Assembly (NCBI GenBank): GCA_034189385.1
Contig: JAXHVD010000004.1
Span: forward strand, 64,001-128,000
Source of the DNA: Thermodesulfobacteriota bacterium
Lineage (GTDB): Bacteria > Desulfobacterota > Desulfobacteria > Desulfobacterales > C00003060
Length of the DNA: 64,000 bases
Direction: 5' to 3'
The notes under the pieces were generated by a model. That model saw only the letters and a program-made list of their open reading frames with translations. It did not search any database and was not told the DNA's origin. How positions within the stretch are numbered: the first letter of the stretch is position 1; each line of letters begins with the position of its first letter. Both the position numbers and the translations under genes were made by a program. Below are positions 53,863-64,000 of the stretch, piece by piece.

Positions 53863-54132
53863 ATGACGGGTCTTTTATTCATTGACGATGAGGAAGGGGT
53901 GCGCCGCTCAATCATTCGAGCGCTAAAAAGGGAACCATATACCGTCTATACAGCTGAAGAAGGGGAGACAGGAATCCGACTGGTTGAAAACGAACCCTCC
54001 AAGATCACCATTGTGGTTTCAGATTACAAGATGCCAGGGCTTGACGGCCTAGAGACGCTGGCACGCATTGCCGCTATCAACCCTGAAGTCACCCGCATCT
54101 TGCTCACCGGTTACGCCACCATGGAAAGATAA
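53863..54132 (+). pseudogene. Response-regulator (REC) gene truncated by element insertion
   Basis: FIDDE...SDYKMPGLDG...LLTGYATME then an immediate stop and a switch to AT-rich sequence; the REC fold is incomplete (no KP motif). Confidence 0.8.
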
Positions 54133-54207
54133 ATAAAAAAGACATGAATAATATAATAGTGCTCTCGCTGTAGCTGAATCAAATTATAAATAGTTTATAT
54201 TTAAAGC

Positions 54208-54248
54208 AAAGTCTGCCGTTAATTTTTCGGTGGGCTTTTGTATTTTTT
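54208..54248 (+). terminator. Terminator insulating the element from dusB read-through
   Basis: AAAGTCTGCCG...CGGTGGGCTTT followed by a T-rich tail. Confidence 0.65.
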
Positions 54249-54260
54249 GGGGGAAATTTT

Positions 54261-54288
54261 TTCGACTCTTCAAAAAGCATGTTATAAT
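54261..54288 (+). promoter_or_regulatory. Sigma70 early promoter with extended -10
   Basis: TTCGAC-16 bp-TATAAT preceded by TG. Confidence 0.7.
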
Positions 54289-54423
54289 ATTATGAGGAGC
54301 TGGAGATAACGTAAGAAGCTAAAAAAAACAATTCTGAAGGCCTCGTCGGGGAATCAAACTCCTAAGCGTTATCTCCTCCCGGCGGGGCCTTTTTTATTCT
54401 GTGATGAAAGGAGGTGAGAGAGG

Positions 54424-54582
54424 ATGGACGAAACTTTAGAAGAACGAGAACAGCTGGCCCACGAGGAAGCGAAACTCATAGCTCACGAGGAGGCTAAACA
54501 GGGCCAAGATTATGAGGAAGCCTATGAGGAAGCCTATGAGTCAGCATACAACGAGGCGTACCAAGAAGCTATGACGGACTAA
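54424..54582 (+). CDS. 52-aa highly acidic protein (not in the ORF track)
   Basis: MDETLEEREQLAHEEAKLIAHEEAKQGQDYEEAYEEAYESAYNEAYQEAMTD; RBS AAAGGAGGTG. Confidence 0.75.
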   Translation: MDETLEEREQLAHEEAKLIAHEEAKQGQDYEEAYEEAYESAYNEAYQEAMTD

Positions 54583-54600
54583 AGCAAAGGAGGAAATACA

Positions 54601-54966
54601 ATGAGTAACGAGGAAGAAGTAGAAAGAAGACATTGGTTGGAAGGGTATGTCAATGATGAAGATATGTCCGGTGAACCCACGTCACCGGCGGAGAAGCAGT
54701 ACGAAGATGCGCTTTGGAAAATGGGCTTCCAATATAGTCTTACAGATACAGGTTTAGTCTATAAAACTTGGGATGCTCAAGAGGCCACAGAAATCGTGGC
54801 TAAGGTGGCCGCGGTCGTTAGGGAATTGGAATTGGACGAAGATGCGTTTAGCCTGAGTCACACTATTCAACCCCAGTGCCCAAAGTGCGGAAGCCTTGGC
54901 CGTTTTTCTGATTTTCATTGTAGGGATTGTGGGGCTGAACTTTTGCCGAGTGAGTATTGTGACTGA
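54601..54966 (+). CDS. Acidic protein with C-terminal zinc ribbon
   Basis: CPKCG...CRDCG; RBS AAGGAGG. Confidence 0.75.
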   Translation: MSNEEEVERRHWLEGYVNDEDMSGEPTSPAEKQYEDALWKMGFQYSLTDTGLVYKTWDAQEATEIVAKVAAVVRELELDEDAFSLSHTIQPQCPKCGSLGRFSDFHCRDCGAELLPSEYCD

Positions 54967-55060
54967 ACTACTACAATAATTTTTGGGTGGGCGCTCCTGG
55001 AGGGTTTTGCCAGTCTCCTTCCCTTCGGGGGCGCTCCACCACACGATGAAAGGAGGTGAA

Positions 55061-56108
55061 ATGAGTTTTGAGTCAGTATTTCCACCAGACTATAAGCCGG
55101 GTTTGACTGTTCGGGGTGGCCCAGGAAAGCACAAAAGGATGGCTGAGAATCGCCAAGAAACGCTCACGAAGATTCGGGAGATCGACAGCCAAATTGACTT
55201 CAAGATGACGCTCCGTGGCTGGTGTTACATGTTAGAGCAAGAATGGGGCTTGGCCAAGTCCGACTTCAGCACTAAGGCAATGCGGTATTTCGGTGAGTAC
55301 CGAGAACGTGGGCAACTTCCCTTGGACTTCTGCCTCGAAGACGACAACCGAGCATTCAGCCAAGGAGAATCGCTTGTCGATGCCGTAGCACCTGATGACT
55401 TCGTGCAAGACGCTTTTGCTTCCTTGCGCGACATTCACACGTACTACAAGCCGCTATCCTTTTGGAACAACCAGAAATACTATATCGAGATGCTAGTTGA
55501 AAAGGCGGACCTCGTTTCACTATTCCGACCTATCTGCTCCAAGTTCAATATCCGAATTGCTAACACTCATGGAAATGCCAGCTATGGTCAGCGCTATGCC
55601 ATGATAAACCGCTTTCGGCAACATGAAGAAGAAGGTCGCAAGCCGGTGCTCTTGTATTGCGGCGACCATGACCCAAGTGGATTGATGATAAGCGATAGGC
55701 TAAAGCATAATTTCAAAAAACTGGAACTGGCAACAGGATGGAGCCCAGACAATCTGCTCATTGACAGGTTTGGGCTAAACTATGACTTCATTGAGAAGCA
55801 CAATCTTTCTTGGATTGACAGCTTGATAACGGCTTCTGGCGAGAATCTCGCTAGCTCGCGACACCATGACTATAAAAAAGCCTACGTGCAGAGCTACATC
55901 AATGAGTATGGTTGCAGAAAAGTTGAGGCAAATGCCATTGTAGTGAGACCGGAGATGGGGCGTAAACTTTGTTATTACAATTCTGCGCTACATCGACCTT
56001 CATGCCGTTGAGAATTTTAAATCTCAGATAAAGGATTCACAGCGAGTAGTTAGAACTTTAACTGAGGATATCCTTGAAGCTGTGGCGGTGGCGTTTATTC
56101 CATCATGA
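55061..56108 (+). CDS. Spo11/Top6A-like (WHD plus Toprim) protein; +1 frameshift near 55970
   Basis: MTLRGWCY WHD motif; Toprim MLVEK...G...YCGDHDPSG; VEANA; the +1 frame continues VITILRYIDLHAVENFK to TGA at 56108. Confidence 0.7.
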
Positions 56109-56223
56109 AGAGGCATTAGGAAAAAGGAGGCAAGAGAGATTTGGTACAAAAAAGTACCAAAGATAACCCCAAGAGAAAACACACAAAACCGGAGACAAAA
56201 AAACAGTTAGAGGAGGCAAGACA

Positions 56224-56790
56224 ATGACAAAAGACGGTAAAAAAGCGGTGGTCGTTTGGCTAGGAACAGATCCATTTCATGCTGAGAAATGCTGGCCTGC
56301 CGCCGCGAAGAGGCTTGGTTATGATGTTATCACTGAGAAAGACGTTAGGCAAGGTATTAGTCTGATGACAGCCGAACACCTTCAAGTACCACGTCGCAAT
56401 TACGAAGATCACGGTATAGACACACCTTACAACCATTGCAGGCAGTGCGGATGCTTTTTATGGGATGCACCGGGGCCATCACTGCTGGAAAGATGGAGCA
56501 AGCTATTTTTAAAAGCACATGAAATCGCTCAAAAGGTGGGCATGTCAATCGGCAAATACTACACTGCCCGAAATGGCTGGATAAGTGGTCGCACCTGGAC
56601 GGATGCTGAAGCGATAGAGGCAGTATGCCAAGACGAATATATAAGTGCACTGTGCGATTGGCTATTTATTATAAACGGTGAAGACATCCCCACTCTCGAA
56701 AAACCAGTCAAGGATGCCCGAATTACGCCTGATATTATTGAATGGCAAGATAGGGCGAATCAATACTTGGCAGATATTGGTCGGTGGTAA
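56224..56790 (+). CDS. Hypothetical protein
   Basis: 188-aa ORF with GAGGAGG RBS and CRQC motif; followed by a terminator-like hairpin at about 56833-56872. Confidence 0.7.
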   Translation: MTKDGKKAVVVWLGTDPFHAEKCWPAAAKRLGYDVITEKDVRQGISLMTAEHLQVPRRNYEDHGIDTPYNHCRQCGCFLWDAPGPSLLERWSKLFLKAHEIAQKVGMSIGKYYTARNGWISGRTWTDAEAIEAVCQDEYISALCDWLFIINGEDIPTLEKPVKDARITPDIIEWQDRANQYLADIGRW

Positions 56791-57045
56791 GGCTATTGGG
56801 TGAGATGATTAACACATCACACTCAACACACATGGGGCGGCGCTCAGAGTTCTGGTGCCGCCTCTGTTGTTTGGTGCTTTGTTGGGAACCGTGAAAAACG
56901 ACAAAAAACATGAAAGCTCTCTTTTTGGGCGCACTTTTTTTATAAGTATTTGTTTTTACTAGCTGTGAAATTAGCCTTGTCAATAATGCAATCTTCGAGA
57001 TCGCTTATTATATTAAAAATAAAAAGATTAAAGAGGTGTAGTCAA

Positions 57046-57243
57046 ATGAAGTCAAGGCTATGGGCAGTGTTACAAAACAGGAAACTGGAACAAAAGAAAG
57101 TCGCCGCCGAGCTGGGTCTGCACCATGTACGGTTGAACCAACTGTGCAACGGTAGGGAGCCGACCAGATTGGAGGCGAAAAAAATATGTGAGCATTTTAG
57201 TATGGATGAAAGCGACCTATTTTCACCAGTCCTATTTTTGTAA
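57046..57243 (+). CDS. XRE/Cro-like HTH regulator
   Basis: LEQKKVAAELGLHHVRLNQLCNGREP...KICEHF; RBS AAGAGGTG. Confidence 0.8.
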   Translation: MKSRLWAVLQNRKLEQKKVAAELGLHHVRLNQLCNGREPTRLEAKKICEHFSMDESDLFSPVLFL

Positions 57244-57255
57244 GGAGCACAATTT

Positions 57256-57417
57256 ATGAACACAGACTATCTTCAGGAGAAATACCCGCTTCAACGCGTT
57301 GCGGAAAACCCTGTAAGGAACGGCCCGGGGATTGTGTGGCTGCTCGCGAAGCAGATCGAGACCAACAGCCTATTGAAAGCGATTTTGAAAGAACTAAAAA
57401 AAGATACAGATGAGTAA
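57256..57417 (+). CDS. 53-aa hypothetical protein
   Basis: MNTDYLQEKYPLQRV...LLKAILKELKKDTDE; RBS TAAGGAG. Confidence 0.55.
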   Translation: MNTDYLQEKYPLQRVAENPVRNGPGIVWLLAKQIETNSLLKAILKELKKDTDE

Positions 57418-57551
57418 AACAGTTTTCACTGGACAAGGCTTTGCAAACCTTGCCCACAATCACCAACCGCCGCAGTCGGTAGGAATGACTTCTGACCTCC
57501 TAGTCTGGGTCCTTCCTCCGGCTGTGGTCACAATCAGACTAGGAGGAAGAT

Positions 57552-58166
57552 ATGCGAAGGAATGGGAAACAACCGAACGAGATCAACAAGGCCAAGATTG
57601 CTCAAGCTAGGAGCCAGCTTCTTAGGTGGCCAAAAGATGTGGTCAGCGCGGTTGTGGGTGACGTTTTCGAGATACTTGCACAAGAGGATGAGTTCTCCGC
57701 TGTCCGGGTTTCTGCTAAACCCTATAAATGGCCACAGTGGATTTACAGTACCAAAAAGCTTCGACACGTGATGAACAGGACTAGATTTCAAGACATGTAT
57801 AATTATCTTTGGCTCAACAAGTTCCCCTTCATCAAGAGGCATTCACACGTGTTCCTGAAGGTGGGGGCTGATGCAGCCGACATCCTGGTGAAGATACGAA
57901 CAAAGGACATGGCCAACAACCTGGACCCTCCTTGTTCGAAACAACTCGTGAATAAGTATTTGGCCTATTTCTCGCGTATCGGGATAATCGAAAAACGGGG
58001 CATCATTGCGTATCAGAACGTGTATTGCATCGCGAAACAGGGAAGCTTTCATGAGGTGATTTCAGACAATGGGACAAAACAGGTGGTGGAAAGGCCAAGA
58101 GTTCTGCCACTGCTTACGGCGAAGGCAAAGAGGGAGATCGAAGGTTTTGACACTATTTTCTCATAG
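57552..58166 (+). CDS. Putative replication initiator / wHTH DNA-binding protein
   Basis: Basic protein with wHTH-like SKQLVNKYLAYFSRIGIIEK; immediately followed by an origin-like palindrome cluster. Confidence 0.45.
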   Translation: MRRNGKQPNEINKAKIAQARSQLLRWPKDVVSAVVGDVFEILAQEDEFSAVRVSAKPYKWPQWIYSTKKLRHVMNRTRFQDMYNYLWLNKFPFIKRHSHVFLKVGADAADILVKIRTKDMANNLDPPCSKQLVNKYLAYFSRIGIIEKRGIIAYQNVYCIAKQGSFHEVISDNGTKQVVERPRVLPLLTAKAKREIEGFDTIFS

Positions 58167-58169
58167 CTC

Positions 58170-58400
58170 TCATTATTCAGTACTGAATAATGAAATTATT
58201 CAGTGTGAAGTCACTGAATAATGGGAATCTTTGGGATATATTATAATAACTAGGGCTTAAGCAATGGCGGACCTTAATGTAATATATAATCTAATTCAAG
58301 TACCCTGTATATATATCAGCTTTTCCTTATACACTTTTCTCCTTCCAAGTATTCAGGAAGAAAAGTGTATAGGAAGTGGCGCTAAAGCGCCACCTCCTTT
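58170..58400. repeat. Origin-like cluster of palindromes
   Basis: Perfect 24-bp palindrome TCATTATTCAGTACTGAATAATGA; ATTATTCAGTG-6-CACTGAATAAT; TATACACTTTTCT/AGAAAAGTGTATA; GTGGCGC-TAAA-GCGCCAC; AT-rich spacer. Confidence 0.75.
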
Positions 58401-58529
58401 TATTTATTCGTTCTGCTTAAATAGAGGGAGTGGTCCTGAATGAAACACAACCCGGTCCTGAAGAACACTAATCGACAAGGTGTCGCGCGCCGCTGCTGCT
58501 GGTGGTGGCAAAGGAGGAACTAGCAGACA

Positions 58530-58685
58530 TTGAAGACTACAGATCCCACTGAAAAGATATGCTGGCGCTGCCGCAGGGAGCATGAAGGACCATGCCCCTA
58601 TGCCGCCCATGCAACCGTTGACGACAAACACACCGGCGCTGATTGCTACATTGCGCCGGGCACAGAGGAGGACAAGAAGGAGTGA
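58530..58685 (+). CDS. 51-aa Cys/His-rich small protein (TTG start)
   Basis: KICWRCRREHEGPCPY...ADCY; AAGGAGG upstream; GTGA overlap with the next gene. Confidence 0.45.
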   Translation: MKTTDPTEKICWRCRREHEGPCPYAAHATVDDKHTGADCYIAPGTEEDKKE

Positions 58686-58831
58686 ATAAAAGTACGGGAC
58701 GATGGATCGAGCCCATTGTAAAACCGGACCCCGAAGTGCAAGAGCTTCAGAAACGCTCGGGCAACTTTGACCCCCCGGTCAAGAGAAGACCAGGAAGACC
58801 AAAGGGGTCAAAGACCAAGAAGAAGAAATGA
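58682..58831 (+). CDS. Small basic AT-hook protein
   Basis: KRRPGRPKGSK; ATGA overlap with terL. Confidence 0.55.
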   Translation: MNKSTGRWIEPIVKPDPEVQELQKRSGNFDPPVKRRPGRPKGSKTKKKK

Positions 58832-60558
58832 TTGTACCCAAGATAGACAGACCAACCACACAAAGACTCCTGAAGATCCTGCGGGCTTTTATCACAAATG
58901 AGCAGGAGCAGAGCATGTGGCCCGTTTTGGATTTGACAGTGGACATGCTTCTTGATGACCCAGAGTTTCACTATTACTACACTGACACGTTTGAGTTTTA
59001 TTTGGAAAATGGCATTCACAACCGGATGGCACTCCATGCTTTCATTCGCCTTTTCTGTGGGTTCGACATTACAAGGCGGGGGGGCGTCGGAAAAGAGCCG
59101 TTTTGCAGTCCCTTTGATTTTGTGGCTGTCTTATTCTTTCAGGAGTGCCGGGATGCGCTGGCCATGGGATCACGAGCCAGCGGCAAGACTCTTGCTCTGG
59201 CCGTTTTGATTTACTTGTGGGCACTTTTCTACCCCGAGTGCGAAACGACAACCTGCGCTGCGACTAAGGATCAGTCATCGCGGGCTTTTTTGTATTTGCG
59301 AAAACTATGTACGAGCAGCAATGCAAGCAACAAACTTCTTAGTTCAAAGCCGACCGCTAAAGCTATCAAATGGGGAAACGGCTCTAGCGTGGAAATGACT
59401 ACTTCAAGTTTGGAGGGAGCGAATGCGCTTCATCCCAGCAAACTCCTTGCCGACGAATCGGAACTTTTGGACTGGAGGGTGGTAGAGGAAATGCTCTCGT
59501 GTGCTATATCACAAGGGGACATACAGGCGAGCACGGTCTTTCTGTCAAGTAGGAAGTTTCTGGACGGACCATTTCAAAGGCTGCTTGAGATGGCAAAAGA
59601 AAATCCCAAGACATACAAAATCTTCAATTGGAGTGCGTGGCAGGCCGTTGAAAGGTGTATGCGGAAATGTGACGACAAGGTTCATGGCAGGTGCGAACTG
59701 CAAGAGCTATGCAAGGGGCGGCTCCGAAAGAGTGACGGCCACTTGGACCTAGAAGACTTCAAGGCGAAGGTACGCCTTCTTTCCGATGAAGTTCTAAAAA
59801 GTCAATGGTTGAATCTCAAGCCGGTTATCACTTCGACGGTGTTCAATAACTATTATGAACCGGAAGTCAGTCTGATTTCACAGCCCGAAGATTTTCATTA
59901 TGATTTCACAGTCTGCGGTATTGACTGGGGGTCAACCAAGGCCAGCAATCTTGTTTTTCAACGATGGCTCGTGGATGTGAGCGACCTTCGTGACGATGCC
60001 ACGGGCCATGTGGATGTTGATAGTTATAAGAAGCCGACACTGTATCTTGCCTATGAATACCGGTCCGCCACTTCGGACATGGCTAGGCTGGCCAGGGCTA
60101 TACTTGAAAGCCCCTATAGAGAGGACTATGAATTGATCTTTGTGGACCCTTCTGGCAAGAGCCTGCGAAATGAACTGGCGCGTTTTGGGATAGAAACAGA
60201 GACGCCACTGGTCACGGGAGTGCAAGAAGGAATTGAGGTTCTGAAGGGGTATCTGAAACCCTATTGGTCAGGCAGGAAGCGCAAGTCGTGCCTATACATT
60301 TTAGACGGTTATTATCACGGTGAGCCAGACCTGGAGCCCACGCACAAAGAGCTTCAACTGATGCGTCACGTCACAAAGCCAGACGGCACCTTGTCACAGA
60401 ATATAGTGAAGGCGCATGACCACGGTGTTGACGCGGCACGATACGCCATAACTGCCGTGCGAAGCGTCATTGAGAGCCTTTATGCCCAGGACTTTGACGA
60501 GGATTTGGGACAGCTTGAACAGTTTGCCGAGACTTTTGGGATTGAAATCTTGGCCTAG
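58828..60558 (+). CDS. terL: Phage terminase large subunit
   Basis: Walker A GSRASGKT, AATKDQS, Walker B LLADESE; RNase H-like nuclease GIDWG, FVDPS, DHGVDAARY. Confidence 0.85.
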   Translation: MIVPKIDRPTTQRLLKILRAFITNEQEQSMWPVLDLTVDMLLDDPEFHYYYTDTFEFYLENGIHNRMALHAFIRLFCGFDITRRGGVGKEPFCSPFDFVAVLFFQECRDALAMGSRASGKTLALAVLIYLWALFYPECETTTCAATKDQSSRAFLYLRKLCTSSNASNKLLSSKPTAKAIKWGNGSSVEMTTSSLEGANALHPSKLLADESELLDWRVVEEMLSCAISQGDIQASTVFLSSRKFLDGPFQRLLEMAKENPKTYKIFNWSAWQAVERCMRKCDDKVHGRCELQELCKGRLRKSDGHLDLEDFKAKVRLLSDEVLKSQWLNLKPVITSTVFNNYYEPEVSLISQPEDFHYDFTVCGIDWGSTKASNLVFQRWLVDVSDLRDDATGHVDVDSYKKPTLYLAYEYRSATSDMARLARAILESPYREDYELIFVDPSGKSLRNELARFGIETETPLVTGVQEGIEVLKGYLKPYWSGRKRKSCLYILDGYYHGEPDLEPTHKELQLMRHVTKPDGTLSQNIVKAHDHGVDAARYAITAVRSVIESLYAQDFDEDLGQLEQFAETFGIEILA

Positions 60559-60570
60559 GAAATAGAATCA

Positions 60571-61341
60571 ATGGCAGATTATGACGAGAGAAAATTTGAA
60601 GAGGTTCTGAGCCTAGTAGGCAAAGGCAACACCCTGGACACGGCATGTTACAGCTCTGGAATCGAACCGAGGCGAGTGAGAAGTTGGATCAAAGCCAACA
60701 GAGGAACCTGCGGGTTGAAATATAAGCAAGCCAAGGCACGATTCATAACGGAGCTAAGAAGTCAGATGTTGGCAGCGCCGCCCGGAGACAAAAGAAACGC
60801 GCTTGCCAGGGAATTGGCTGCACATGATCCCAGCTTTGCGAGGAGCGTGGCACAACAGCACAAGCGGTTGATCGAGCAGGAAGACAAGGAAAGGGACAAG
60901 GCACTTGAGCAAACACTTGGCAGGGTTGATTATGGCTTCGCGGGATGGAAGCTGAAGAAGCGGGACGGTGTAAGGAAGCTAAAGGCGGGCAATCTTGACG
61001 AGAAGGCACTTAAAACAATCTGGTCTTGGAGTCTGGCCGGAGAAGACAAGAAGGACATCAAAGAGAGATACGACTTCGAGCAGAGGATTCTTGGAAATGC
61101 TACCAAGCAGAGCATGAAACAAGTAGCAGAAAAAATAAAGGCGCTGATGGTGGGAAGGAACAAGATGAGCAAGGACGAGGAGCGACTTCTCACTGAAAAG
61201 ATAGTCACAGCAAAAAAGACCAAGAGTCCTTATAAACTGAAGGATTCAAATGGAGGGGTGATAGAGCTTCCAGCGATTGAGCTAGAGTGGAAACAGGAAA
61301 AGAAAAAGACAGTCAGGAGAAAGAAGAAAACAAGAAGATAA
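60571..61341 (+). CDS. TerS-like N-terminal HTH protein with basic tail
   Basis: FEEVLSLVGKGNTLDTACYSSGIEPRRVRSW resembles small-terminase HTH; adjacent to terL. Confidence 0.5.
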   Translation: MADYDERKFEEVLSLVGKGNTLDTACYSSGIEPRRVRSWIKANRGTCGLKYKQAKARFITELRSQMLAAPPGDKRNALARELAAHDPSFARSVAQQHKRLIEQEDKERDKALEQTLGRVDYGFAGWKLKKRDGVRKLKAGNLDEKALKTIWSWSLAGEDKKDIKERYDFEQRILGNATKQSMKQVAEKIKALMVGRNKMSKDEERLLTEKIVTAKKTKSPYKLKDSNGGVIELPAIELEWKQEKKKTVRRKKKTRR

Positions 61342-61416
61342 AGAGAGAATAGCGTGATTCGAAACGCTGGCAGGGATGTGCCTCCTTTTTCGGAAGTGGC
61401 CTCCTTTTTGGGTTGG

Positions 61417-61482
61417 CTAAACAATTCTCAATAGGATTACAAATCCAATAAGAACGTTTAATGCAATTATGTAATTAAACAT
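61417..61482 (-). CDS. 21-aa hydrophobic peptide, candidate type I toxin
   Basis: MFNYIIALNVLIGFVILLRIV; RBS AAAGAGGTG; promoter TTGACA-17-TATCTT at 61525-61553; 13-bp 5'/3' complementarity of the transcript. Confidence 0.7.
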   Translation of the reverse strand: MFNYIIALNVLIGFVILLRIV

Positions 61483-61951
61483 AAGCATCACCTCTTTGAA
61501 AAGGATTTCCCTGCCAGCGTGCATAAGATACCAAAGGTAGGAAGTTTTGTCAAGGAGGGGGAAGAATAAGAAAGGATGATATAGTGATTGAAGATGGGGG
61601 GTATATGATAGTGGTCAAGAAGCAGGCACTAGAAAAATGCCTATATACCACACAAATAGAAAGCTTTTCTGAGTGCTCTATTTGCTACATAGGGACTGAG
61701 AGGGAAACCACATAAGAACATGGAAGCAGAGACAGGTTATAAGCACTTAAAATATATTAGAAAACAGGAGGAACAGCTTTCAAGTCTACATATTGGGGTG
61801 TGGCTACTCAGCAAGTCCACGCCCAGCTTGTATTTGAGAGCGACACCATCGGCAAACATAAGCTACAAAAGGCTTTACAAATGACATCGGAACATATTAA
61901 AATATGGCTGTTTCAGAGCCTAAAACACGCAACAGGAAAGGGGCAAATCGG

Positions 61952-62638
61952 ATGAAAACAGCCGTCGGTTATGTCAGGGTTTCAACCATCGAACAGGCCC
62001 AACAGGGTGTTAGCCTAAAGAACCAGCAGGCGAAGATCAAGGCATGGGCGAAGCTCAACGGATATGCTTTGAAAGACGTATATCGTGACGAGGGAATCAG
62101 CGGAAAAGCTATGGACAACCGGGACGGACTACAGAGTGCGCTCAAGAGTGTGGGCAAAGGCGATGCGCTGGTTGTTTACAGCCTGTCGAGGATGGCCCGG
62201 TCAACCAGGGATGCCCTGGCTATCGCGGAGGCGCTACAACACAAGGGCGCAGATCTGGTGAGCGTCACTGAGCACATAGATACGACAACTGCGGCGGGGA
62301 AAATGGTGTTCCGAATGCTGGCCGTGCTCAATGAGTTCGAAAGGGACCAGGTGTCTGAGCGCGTCACACAGGCGCTGGCCTACAAGCGCGGCAAGAATGA
62401 ATGGGTGGGCCGTGTACCGTACGGTTTCAGGGTACATGCTGGAAAGCTGGTGGAGGACACAGAACAGATTGAAAGCATCAAGAAGATGAAACGGCTTCGG
62501 AAAAGGGGCAAGACTCTGCGCGACATTTCAAAGACGTTTGGGGTATCACCCGCGTATGTTTTAAGGGCTGTAAATGTCAACCTGAGGACGCTGAAAGCTA
62601 AGTATCTCAACGGATCACGGCTTCAGCCTGTTTATTAA
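61952..62638 (+). CDS. Serine recombinase (resolvase/invertase catalytic domain with a short C-terminal region)
   Basis: GYVRVST.EQ, DEGISG, VYSLSRMAR, EFERD, GRVPYGF. Confidence 0.92.
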   Translation: MKTAVGYVRVSTIEQAQQGVSLKNQQAKIKAWAKLNGYALKDVYRDEGISGKAMDNRDGLQSALKSVGKGDALVVYSLSRMARSTRDALAIAEALQHKGADLVSVTEHIDTTTAAGKMVFRMLAVLNEFERDQVSERVTQALAYKRGKNEWVGRVPYGFRVHAGKLVEDTEQIESIKKMKRLRKRGKTLRDISKTFGVSPAYVLRAVNVNLRTLKAKYLNGSRLQPVY

Positions 62639-62902
62639 ACAAATGGTTTTTAAACAAAAAGGGTTTGAAATGGACTTAAACAGATTAAATGTGAAACGGT
62701 CACAGTGATATGACAACCGGTCAAACTGCCCCAGGCAACCAGCTCTTCCCACTCCGCAGGGCGAGGGACGGGGGCGCCGTCTTACATCACCACCGAAAAT
62801 CAAACGGGCGATGGACGGGGCACTCCGCAGAAAATTAAATTATATTAGCTGTCCCCGAAGCACAAGGAAAGGAGAAATACTACAAGAGGAGCGTGAAGCA
62901 CA

Positions 62903-63235
62903 ATAGCCAGTAAAGACACGTATTGCATATTCTGCAACAGACCCGAGCCACAGTACACCCCGCCAAACGCAGACACAGAAATCGTCTGTAGCCGGTGCGT
63001 TCAGCGCCTAGTAAACGCCACCCAGGAACAACTCTTGACCCTGTACAAGGTAGCACTGGCACGGGACTAAGCAGGTAGCCGACGAGCTGGCCGGAAGCTG
63101 GCTGCTACCGGAAACGCTAGAACAAATAGAAGAGGAGGAAGGAGACTGTGAGCAAGAAACCGGAGAGACTAGACCAGATCTGGAGCGAGCGAGACCTTTG
63201 CCGTCGTCTAGACCTGCCCGTCACCAAGAACGGTA
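62903..63235 (+). pseudogene. Decayed C4 zinc-finger gene
   Basis: ATA in place of a start after GAGGAG; YCIFC...VCSRCVQ; apparent frameshift near 63066. Confidence 0.5.
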
Positions 63236-63363
63236 AAAGCGCGAGGCTGGGGTATTGGATCAGGGGCGGCCTGAACTACGTCGAGAAGTCAGGCAAGCGG
63301 TATTTCTTTGAATCTGATGTCATTGACTACCTGTGGAGCCGATATGAGAACCGAGACGAATAA
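63148..63363 (+). CDS. Excisionase/MerR-like HTH protein
   Basis: SERDLCRRL...LGYWIRGGLNYVEKSGKRYFFESDVIDYL. Confidence 0.65.
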   Translation: MSKKPERLDQIWSERDLCRRLDLPVTKNGKSARLGYWIRGGLNYVEKSGKRYFFESDVIDYLWSRYENRDE

Positions 63364-63521
63364 GGGCTGTAAGTTGCAAACCACACACACGGTTGGGGGT
63401 AGGTTTTGACTAGCTTTTATATAACTTTAAGGGGGTATTTTTCCGGGTTAATAGGGTTACATGCCTTTTCCTGAAAACCCCCGTTAAACAGCGGATAAGA
63501 AGCTTTTACGGCGTATTTACA

Positions 63522-63758
63522 ATGACTCAACAACAGACAGACAGGATCATTCTCAACGGCAGAATCACGGAGAACCAGGCCTTCGGCAAGTGGGCAGTGG
63601 AGCTGAACCACCGCTCCGGCTGCACGACCTTGGCGTCGTGTTACGCATCCGGAAGACTGCGGCTTGCGTCAATCCGCATGCTGCCCGGTGATTGGGTGAA
63701 AGTGGAGCTTTCGCCCTATGACCTGAGTCGAGGCCGGATTCTATATCGTTTCAAATAA
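63522..63758 (+). CDS. infA: Divergent translation initiation factor IF-1 homolog
   Basis: [36 protein letters not shown] matches the IF-1 C-terminal signature. Confidence 0.8.
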
Positions 63759-63958
63759 CTACTCTACCCAGCGCAGCATTATCGTGGTGGCTTCCTCGCT
63801 GTGTCTGGTCCGGCAGAACCTAAGTCAGCTGTCGGAGGATTCATAAGGAAGCCACTAACACGCACGGTCGCAACCTCCAAAACCGGGGCGGCCCGTGCCA
63901 CCGCAGTTAGAATCGGGCCGCCCCATACTTTTAAACTGACAAAAGGAGTGAAAGAAAA

Positions 63959-64000
63959 ATGACAACAGAATATTGGCAGATACCGGCGGATCAGGATTTC
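63959..64000 (+). CDS. Start of a further element gene (partial)
   Basis: AAGGAGTG RBS, then MTTEYWQIPADQDF to the window end. Confidence 0.5.
   Translation, partial: MTTEYWQIPADQDF

Follow-up and report, generated by a model that had tools for sequence, protein, structure and literature searches.

The question raised by the DNA between a TerS-like gene and a small serine recombinase gene in the window (the whole stretch of 64,000 nucleotides that was analysed) is whether the short minus-strand unit lying there encodes a type I toxin, as the initial annotation had proposed. All the features that this annotation had listed over 61364..61553 (-) were recovered in place (Table 1), and the reading that we prefer, with a rough probability of 0.6, is that of a new type I toxin locus, as yet the only member of its kind, on a phage-satellite-like element. 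Computation supports the mRNA half of this interpretation, namely the 5'-3' pairing, the occlusion of the Shine-Dalgarno (SD) sequence and the frame-specific hydrophobic ORF; judging from the sequence, and with transcript ends that are predicted, the locked mRNA for a membrane peptide is real and carefully built. Being a singleton, the locus stays a candidate.

Table 1. Features of the minus-strand locus and of its surroundings (positions in the window).
Feature	Position	Strand	Basis or remark
Integrated element, part inside the window	54129..64000		Continues to ~69304 window-equivalent
Terminase large subunit gene (TerL)	58828..60558	+	PHROG E 3.7e-10
TerS-like gene	60571..61341	+	PHROG terminase small subunit E 0.015 (weak assignment)
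Weak 5-bp hairpin resembling a terminator, followed by a pyrimidine run	61351..61368	-	Overlaps the 3' arm
Predicted mRNA, 157 nt	61364..61520	-	Ends inferred from sequence; fold z and pair probabilities
3' arm of the 13-bp stem	61364..61376	-	Perfect complement of the 5' arm
3' UTR repeat 2, 10 nt	61380..61389	-	Predicted partner is the U-rich box
Anti-SD	61393..61398	-	Between both 3' repeats; predicted 6 bp with the SD, one G-U
3' UTR repeat 1, 10 nt	61399..61408	-	Weakly paired in the full-length fold; no stable partner
Hydrophobic ORF, 21 aa	61417..61482	-	GRAVY 2.21; best stretch 12/15 hydrophobic; one charged residue
Long hairpin within the ORF	61418..61460	-	Predicted; two G-U pairs
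Start-codon-hiding hairpin	61461..61488	-	Predicted; appears once ~62 nt are transcribed
Candidate antisense RNA, ~84 nt	61477..61560	+	Ends guessed; predicted fold
SD sequence	61489..61497	-	6 nt upstream of the ATG
U-rich box	61499..61505	-	Predicted partners: repeat 2 (full-length RNA); SD or 5' arm locally (nascent RNA)
5' arm of the 13-bp 5'-3' stem	61508..61520	-	Perfect inverted repeat
-10 hexamer with extended TG	61525..61530	-	4/6 consensus; spacer to the -35 of 17 nt
-35 hexamer	61548..61553	-	6/6 consensus
Small serine resolvase/invertase gene	61904..62638	+	Pfam Resolvase E 4.9e-41

As for the borders of the transcript, the promoter pair agrees with the consensus at 10 of 12 positions and is among four sites with this score in the 17 promoter-like sites of 54000-64000; since shuffles give 10.2 +/- 3.4 such sites, the promoter by itself is not rare. 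The terminator-like hairpin at 61351..61368 is at chance level, with 1 found vs 1.9 expected.

The RNA between these borders has a strong predicted fold: the 157-nt minus-strand molecule reaches -62.5 kcal/mol (z -6.48, matched by none of 200 shuffles), and this value, together with the perfect 13-bp stem, upholds the long-distance 5'-3' pairing claimed at the outset. The plus strand of the same 157 nt folds with -59.1 kcal/mol (z -4.70), and the minus strand is favoured over it by three G-U pairs and a lead of 3.4 kcal/mol; once the arms are removed, the inner 131 nt have z -3.36 on the minus strand (matched by 1 of 200 shuffles) and z -2.60 on the plus strand. The fold, which like all those given here is a prediction on a single sequence, is nested and consists, from the outside in, of the end stem, a helix between the U-rich box and repeat 2, the SD/anti-SD helix, a hairpin over the AUG and the long hairpin within the ORF, which is fully paired. 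The SD/anti-SD pairs have mostly a predicted probability of 0.9. In this fold the SD is held by a separate anti-SD at 61398-61393, absent from the initial feature list; the U-rich box noted there upstream of the ribosome-binding site is present, and instead of being the main partner of the SD it pairs with repeat 2 in the full-length fold. When the ORF was recoded synonymously 500 times, only 3 of the variants matched the folding energy of the native mRNA (native -61.5 vs -52.6 +/- 2.6).

Sequestration of the ribosome-binding site, the other structural claim, is borne out by a predicted SD-opening cost of 5.8 kcal/mol in the full-length RNA; the cost is 1.5 kcal/mol with 35-45 nt cut from the 3' end, and 1.2 kcal/mol with the anti-SD changed in silico. 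For the ribosome footprint, the predicted opening cost goes from 13.0 to 8.7 kcal/mol on trimming. In prefix folding the earliest structures are weak local hairpins at the SD, and the AUG hairpin appears at ~62 nt; this second hairpin is closed in every trimmed form folded, so that trimming does not fully explain the activating step.

These elements can be arranged into a putative mechanism. The sequence itself contains the first layer, that is a promoter-like site, an SD, an ORF and complementary ends. During transcription, local hairpins are predicted to cover the SD and the AUG, and in the finished RNA three nested long-range helices (the 13-bp end stem, U-box/repeat 2 and SD/anti-SD) would produce a stable, untranslated reservoir. 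By analogy with aapA and hok, slow 3' trimming of ~35 nt would then take away the anti-SD and loosen the 5' end; in the weakest step of the scheme, a short-lived plus-strand RNA, with 61477-61560 as the best candidate, would cover the 5' UTR, the SD and the start codon of the trimmed form. Finally, in cells that lose the excised 15-kb element the antisense RNA would go first and the cell would be poisoned, the 21-residue hydrophobic peptide, if made, damaging the membrane; the element would be stabilised because element-free cells would meet this fate. Prophages are indeed stabilised by type I pairs (excerpt of PMC7699646). In type I systems the mRNA is of 150-400 nt, the peptide of 20-60 aa and the antisense RNA of 60-200 nt, and two kinds of anti-SD occur (excerpt of PMC8594479); the predicted mRNA, with 157 nt, its own promoter and an SD held by an anti-SD, has the layout of the class, as a prediction only. 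Counting against the type I reading are the lack of a homolog, of a charged C-terminal cluster in the peptide and of a second copy, along with the AUG hairpin that is kept shut.

Regarding the antitoxin, support for the plus-strand candidate is modest. Its predicted fold begins with 14 unpaired nt that face the AUG and the SD and continues as a long hairpin at 61491-61558. Sok, too, consists of an unpaired 5' tail and a hairpin. Over 61488-61560 the plus strand has z -3.29 vs -0.45 for the minus strand, a plus-only hairpin that stems from partial complementarity between the sequence around the -35 box and the 5' UTR with its SD; the interval was picked after the fact, and an equal z was obtained for 8 of 500 73-nt windows drawn at random from the genome. 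The one sign of an antisense promoter is an extended -10 at 61462-61470, read by eye; a consensus scan of the plus strand near the candidate gave no passing promoter, and no U-tract follows the hairpin. Pairing with the mRNA is predicted to gain -47.8 kcal/mol for the trimmed form vs -23.6 kcal/mol for the full-length one, a difference that follows automatically from the loss of structure. A search for a trans antitoxin in the element gave -31.4 kcal/mol as the best of 5048 24-nt windows, which equals the host background (-31.3, best of 5126).

The alternative source of antisense RNA is read-through from terL-terS. The TerS-like gene is convergent with the peptide gene and leaves 22 nt to the 3' arm. 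Between its end (61341) and the locus, no terminator was called on the plus strand, which has two U-runs, each after a weak hairpin (-5.7 and -6.7 kcal/mol). This arrangement also suits an explanation which we regard as unlikely, in which the locked mRNA and its peptide are real and serve the life cycle of the element, not addiction: the peptide would be a small membrane regulator or a lysis/exclusion peptide set by the convergent read-through, which would silence it when crossing the ORF and unlock it when crossing the 3' lock only. The short distance between the genes, the U-runs, the lack of a dedicated antitoxin promoter passing the scan and the fall of the SD-opening cost on loss of the last 35-45 nt all agree with such a role. 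Weighing on the other side, the plus strand of 61342-61412 has z 0.38, no better than shuffles, so that termination inside the 3' UTR is unsupported, and layered silencing is typical of lethal peptides (PMC8594479, in the excerpted part). In a related version, which we consider a long shot, the packaging-gene (terL-terS) transcript would run into the 3' lock, strip the end stem and the anti-SD and turn translation on, the membrane peptide being made when packaging starts; such an antisense-activated killer would be the reverse of antitoxin logic.

The type I reading also depends on the peptide. Of its 20 codons, 14 have T as the second base (hypergeometric P 0.011), and in 200,000 nucleotide shuffles of the ORF 0.2% were open and equally hydrophobic, or 1.2% of the open ones; from this excess and this rarity, the frame set by the SD is the hydrophobic one. 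A single Arg is the charged residue, and the peptide is without a polar tail or a charged C-terminal cluster. On a membrane-insertion scale, a 19-residue window has a score of +1.75 and the 15-residue core of -1.96, so that the peptide is shorter than a full membrane span would call for. The hydrophobicity criterion for the class is at least 10 hydrophobic residues per 15-residue stretch (excerpt of PMC2887945), and the peptide has 12 of 15 and, with 21 aa, is within the 20-60 aa of the class; a charged C-terminal cluster is found in many type I toxins and is common, not universal (PMC2887945, same excerpt). No family was found for it in Pfam at E 0.1 or in NCBIfam at E 1, and PHROGs gave nothing beyond one family listed as unknown (E 0.77), a 21-aa query having little power in family-model searches. 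The tblastn of the peptide, proposed as a check in the initial annotation, was run against phages and plasmids and gave no meaningful match, and the same held for blastn. In its own genome the unit is single, by BLAST, by motifs and by a covariance model built from this one sequence.

The absence of peptide relatives in phages, plasmids, Pfam, NCBIfam and PHROGs is what would be expected if the RNA were a structured non-coding one and the ORF were incidental to a U-rich stem, and the complete pairing of the ORF, with the AUG hidden in every form folded, points the same way. We find this quite improbable: 6 nt upstream of the ATG there is a strong SD, with a separate anti-SD directed at it, the hydrophobicity is frame-specific (P ~0.01), and Rfam had no match over 61300-61600 up to E 5.

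The arms may be considered as DNA as well as RNA. The small serine recombinase is divergent from the peptide gene, 380 nt away; it matches the PHROG DNA invertase (E 1.8e-52), and the NCBIfam Mpi invertase with E 1.4e-16, far below the family cut-off. With the promoter just outside one arm, and with no SD-like word on the flipped strand, the arms could be recombination sites at which this enzyme inverts the 157-bp segment, so that the peptide gene behind a fixed promoter would be turned on or off. This is very unlikely, for several reasons: the identity extends over 13 bp only, whereas serine invertases use quasi-palindromic sites of ~26 bp that share a crossover; half-site symmetry reaches at best 7/12 per arm, in different registers; the inner helices, nested and with G-U pairs, speak for RNA; and the single contig shows no inverted joint in the one locus-covering run, a marine metagenome that is probably the source sample, contigs being prone to drop rare forms. 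In the region between the two divergent genes, 61760-61880 (+) has a plus-specific structure (z -3.1 vs 0.16), flanked by the resolvase promoter and by a weak promoter-like site; its complementarity to the peptide mRNA is not above background.

As for how common such arms are, the 4.13-Mb genome contains 629 perfect inverted repeats of at least 11 bp, 60-400 nt apart, and 199 of at least 13 bp, so that a 13-bp arm alone is common. A promoter-like site just upstream is present for 6 of the 629 and an SD-led hydrophobic ORF is enclosed by 4, and both occur only at 61364..61520; the thresholds of this screen were chosen after the locus had been seen. A chance assembly of common motifs in the AT-rich intergenic DNA of a mobile element is the least credible explanation, since the conjunction is unique among the 629 repeats, z is -6.5 and codon choice favours the fold (the 3 in 500 recodings above), even if the parts are individually common (the 199 repeats, promoter-like sites near chance level) and no conservation was found.

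The element that carries the locus measures 15.2 kb (G000:C34:118129-133304) and has a large serine integrase at its end. It splits a response-regulator/adenylate-guanylate cyclase gene at a 4-bp core, and the same gene is uninterrupted in related-strain contigs (runs X1 and X3). It appears to be an integrated, phage-satellite-like element; the ORFs that were scanned (17 + 6 against Pfam, and 7 window proteins against PHROGs) included none recognisable as a capsid gene. The terminase genes stand in the order large, then small-like; TerL has one relative at 27% and none in viral contigs, and the TerS-like protein matches only itself, so that by its terminase genes the element is nearly an orphan. 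The resolvase has no confirmed relative in viral contigs and was found in 0 of 300 genomes at E 1e-40; a relative of the integrase occurs in 1 of 150 genomes, on a 4.5-kb contig.

Other parts of the element have features of their own. Just before its first ORF, 54338-54395 (+) forms a long hairpin with a U-tract (z -4.25), attenuator- or small-RNA-like; at 54983-56011 (+) a lone toprim-like gene encodes a 342-aa protein that matches the PHROG DNA topoisomerase (E 3.6e-48) and no Pfam or NCBIfam family. A 204-aa replication-like ORF is followed at 58165-58222 (+) by palindromes of a repeated 9-mer and at 58310-58410 (+) by a long near-perfect hairpin with a terminator (z -7.5), and the region 58165-58405 (+) is possibly an origin or a small RNA; two 9-nt words of this terminator are also present in the plus strand of the 3' UTR of the peptide mRNA. 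A 13-nt copy of 3' UTR repeat 2 lies at 56122-56134 (+), placed like an SD ahead of a putative 28-codon ORF; any plus-strand RNA made at the peptide locus would have complementarity to this copy, which may be due to chance. Beyond the window, the element encodes a 280-aa secreted PEP-CTERM protein (L140:2928-3770, minus strand; E 0.00024).

Compared with known type I systems, the locus would work like them, by prediction, and by similarity it is a member of no named family: Pfam, NCBIfam, PHROGs and Rfam gave no similarity to AapA, Hok, Ibs, Fst/Ldr, TxpA, TisB and others. The Ibs peptides of E. coli have 18-19 aa. From Ibs/Sib the locus differs in having no tandem repeats and no Rfam or protein-family match, and a Sib-like promoter and terminator were not seen; like Ibs, its peptide is very short and almost wholly hydrophobic, and, as for Sib, plus-strand transcription entering from terS would span the entire ORF (excerpt of PMC4147584). 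Unlike ibs and ldr, it is present in a single copy (PMC2887945, same excerpt).

The closest parallel in design is AapA/IsoA of Helicobacter, in which the aapA3 mRNA is inert at full length by 5'-3' pairing, has metastable co-transcriptional hairpins, is activated by 35-nt 3' trimming and is met in its trimmed form by an antisense RNA of ~80 nt (excerpt of PMC6733600). The locus has in common with it the short hydrophobic peptide and an SD that 5'-3' pairing ties up with a remote anti-SD, and in addition predicted co-transcriptional hairpins, a predicted unlocking by 3' trimming and a candidate antisense RNA of ~80 nt opposite the 5' part. Compared with what that excerpt of PMC6733600 gives for AapA, no sequence similarity was found, the peptide has 21 aa vs 30 aa and the mRNA 157 nt vs 225 nt; the locus is single and on a mobile element, whereas aapA has several chromosomal copies, and here the antisense RNA is a candidate. 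With Hok/Sok of plasmid R1 it shares the 5'-3' fold-back and the proposed maintenance of a mobile element; unlike hok, its 38-nt 5' UTR has no mok-like leader ORF, its peptide is far shorter, and it has no Rfam or Pfam match (PMC4147584, same excerpt). As in TxpA/RatA and Fst/RNAII, which overlap convergently at the 3' end, it is convergent with another transcript, and the direct repeats of its RNA recall DRa/DRb (PMC4147584); unlike these two systems, it has no strong shared terminator, both of its repeats are tandem in the 3' UTR and its peptide is without a charged C-terminal tail. Finally, it is sited on an integrated element, like the prophage-stabilising pairs of C. difficile (PMC7699646, in excerpt).

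The initial annotation had spoken of a new type I toxin-antitoxin family; the toxin-mRNA half of that proposal is backed by the fold, the SD lock and the ORF frame, and the family part is unsupported, with no second member in the genome, viral, plasmid and metagenome searches. The role given there, stabilisation of the element or abortive infection, is putative. BLAST of 271 nt in 60 relatives gave only matches of 15-37 nt, and those that were opened lay in unrelated contexts. The covariance model had 0 matches in 150 order genomes; in 36 genus genomes it had one that was weak and partial (E 0.057), AU-rich and rejected on inspection. The arm pattern occurred in 10 of 400 phylum genomes vs 2 for a reversed control, never with the inner layout (80 nt from each end), and the 3' motif in 0 of 300 genomes. 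In viral contigs, six patterns gave 4, 6, 8, 2, 15 and 1 stretches, with no homolog among those inspected (2 of 4 for the first pattern); in genome contigs there were 11 pattern matches, all chance; in metagenomes the strict pattern gave 0 and the loose one 53 stretches, none with a comparable hydrophobic ORF. The pattern searches required exact arm letters, and the locus is near the upper edge of the gap range of one viral-contig pattern and of the genome-contig pattern, so that longer relatives would be missed there.

In the part of the open literature that was searched, no type I systems from sulfate reducers are described, and the excerpted main text of PMC2887945 does not mention Desulfo-, Geobacter or Deltaproteobacteria. 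If the type I reading is true, this would be a type I toxin family without similarity to the curated ones, found from RNA architecture alone; the toxin, on the satellite-like element carried by a marine anaerobe, would be among the shortest, with a compact three-helix lock that is easily tested in vitro. It would be a known mechanism in a new setting, the mechanism itself being unchanged, and it suggests that loci of this kind go unnoticed when peptide homology is the means of finding them.

One of the metagenome stretches, L057 (contig Ga0265297_10022651, 1499-1670), has the arm letters used in the search and an anti-SD/SD hairpin motif in common with the locus, but its peptide is basic, has 30 aa and belongs to a different family. 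Its inner similarity, although the top of 68 pattern matches, was matched by 88 of 1000 shuffles (covariance model E 0.17); since this is not significant, L057 is not counted as a homolog and is treated as an analogous design. The unit, with 13-bp complementary ends, lies on a tRNA-integrated element and adjoins an AbiEi/AbiEii-like pair, named by reading the ORFs. Its peptide has no Pfam, NCBIfam or PHROG family and 17 representatives at E 0.001, with a relative behind a strong SD on a Parabacteroides plasmid (L131), and possibly stands for a family of locked small-protein mRNAs that is widespread and has escaped annotation.
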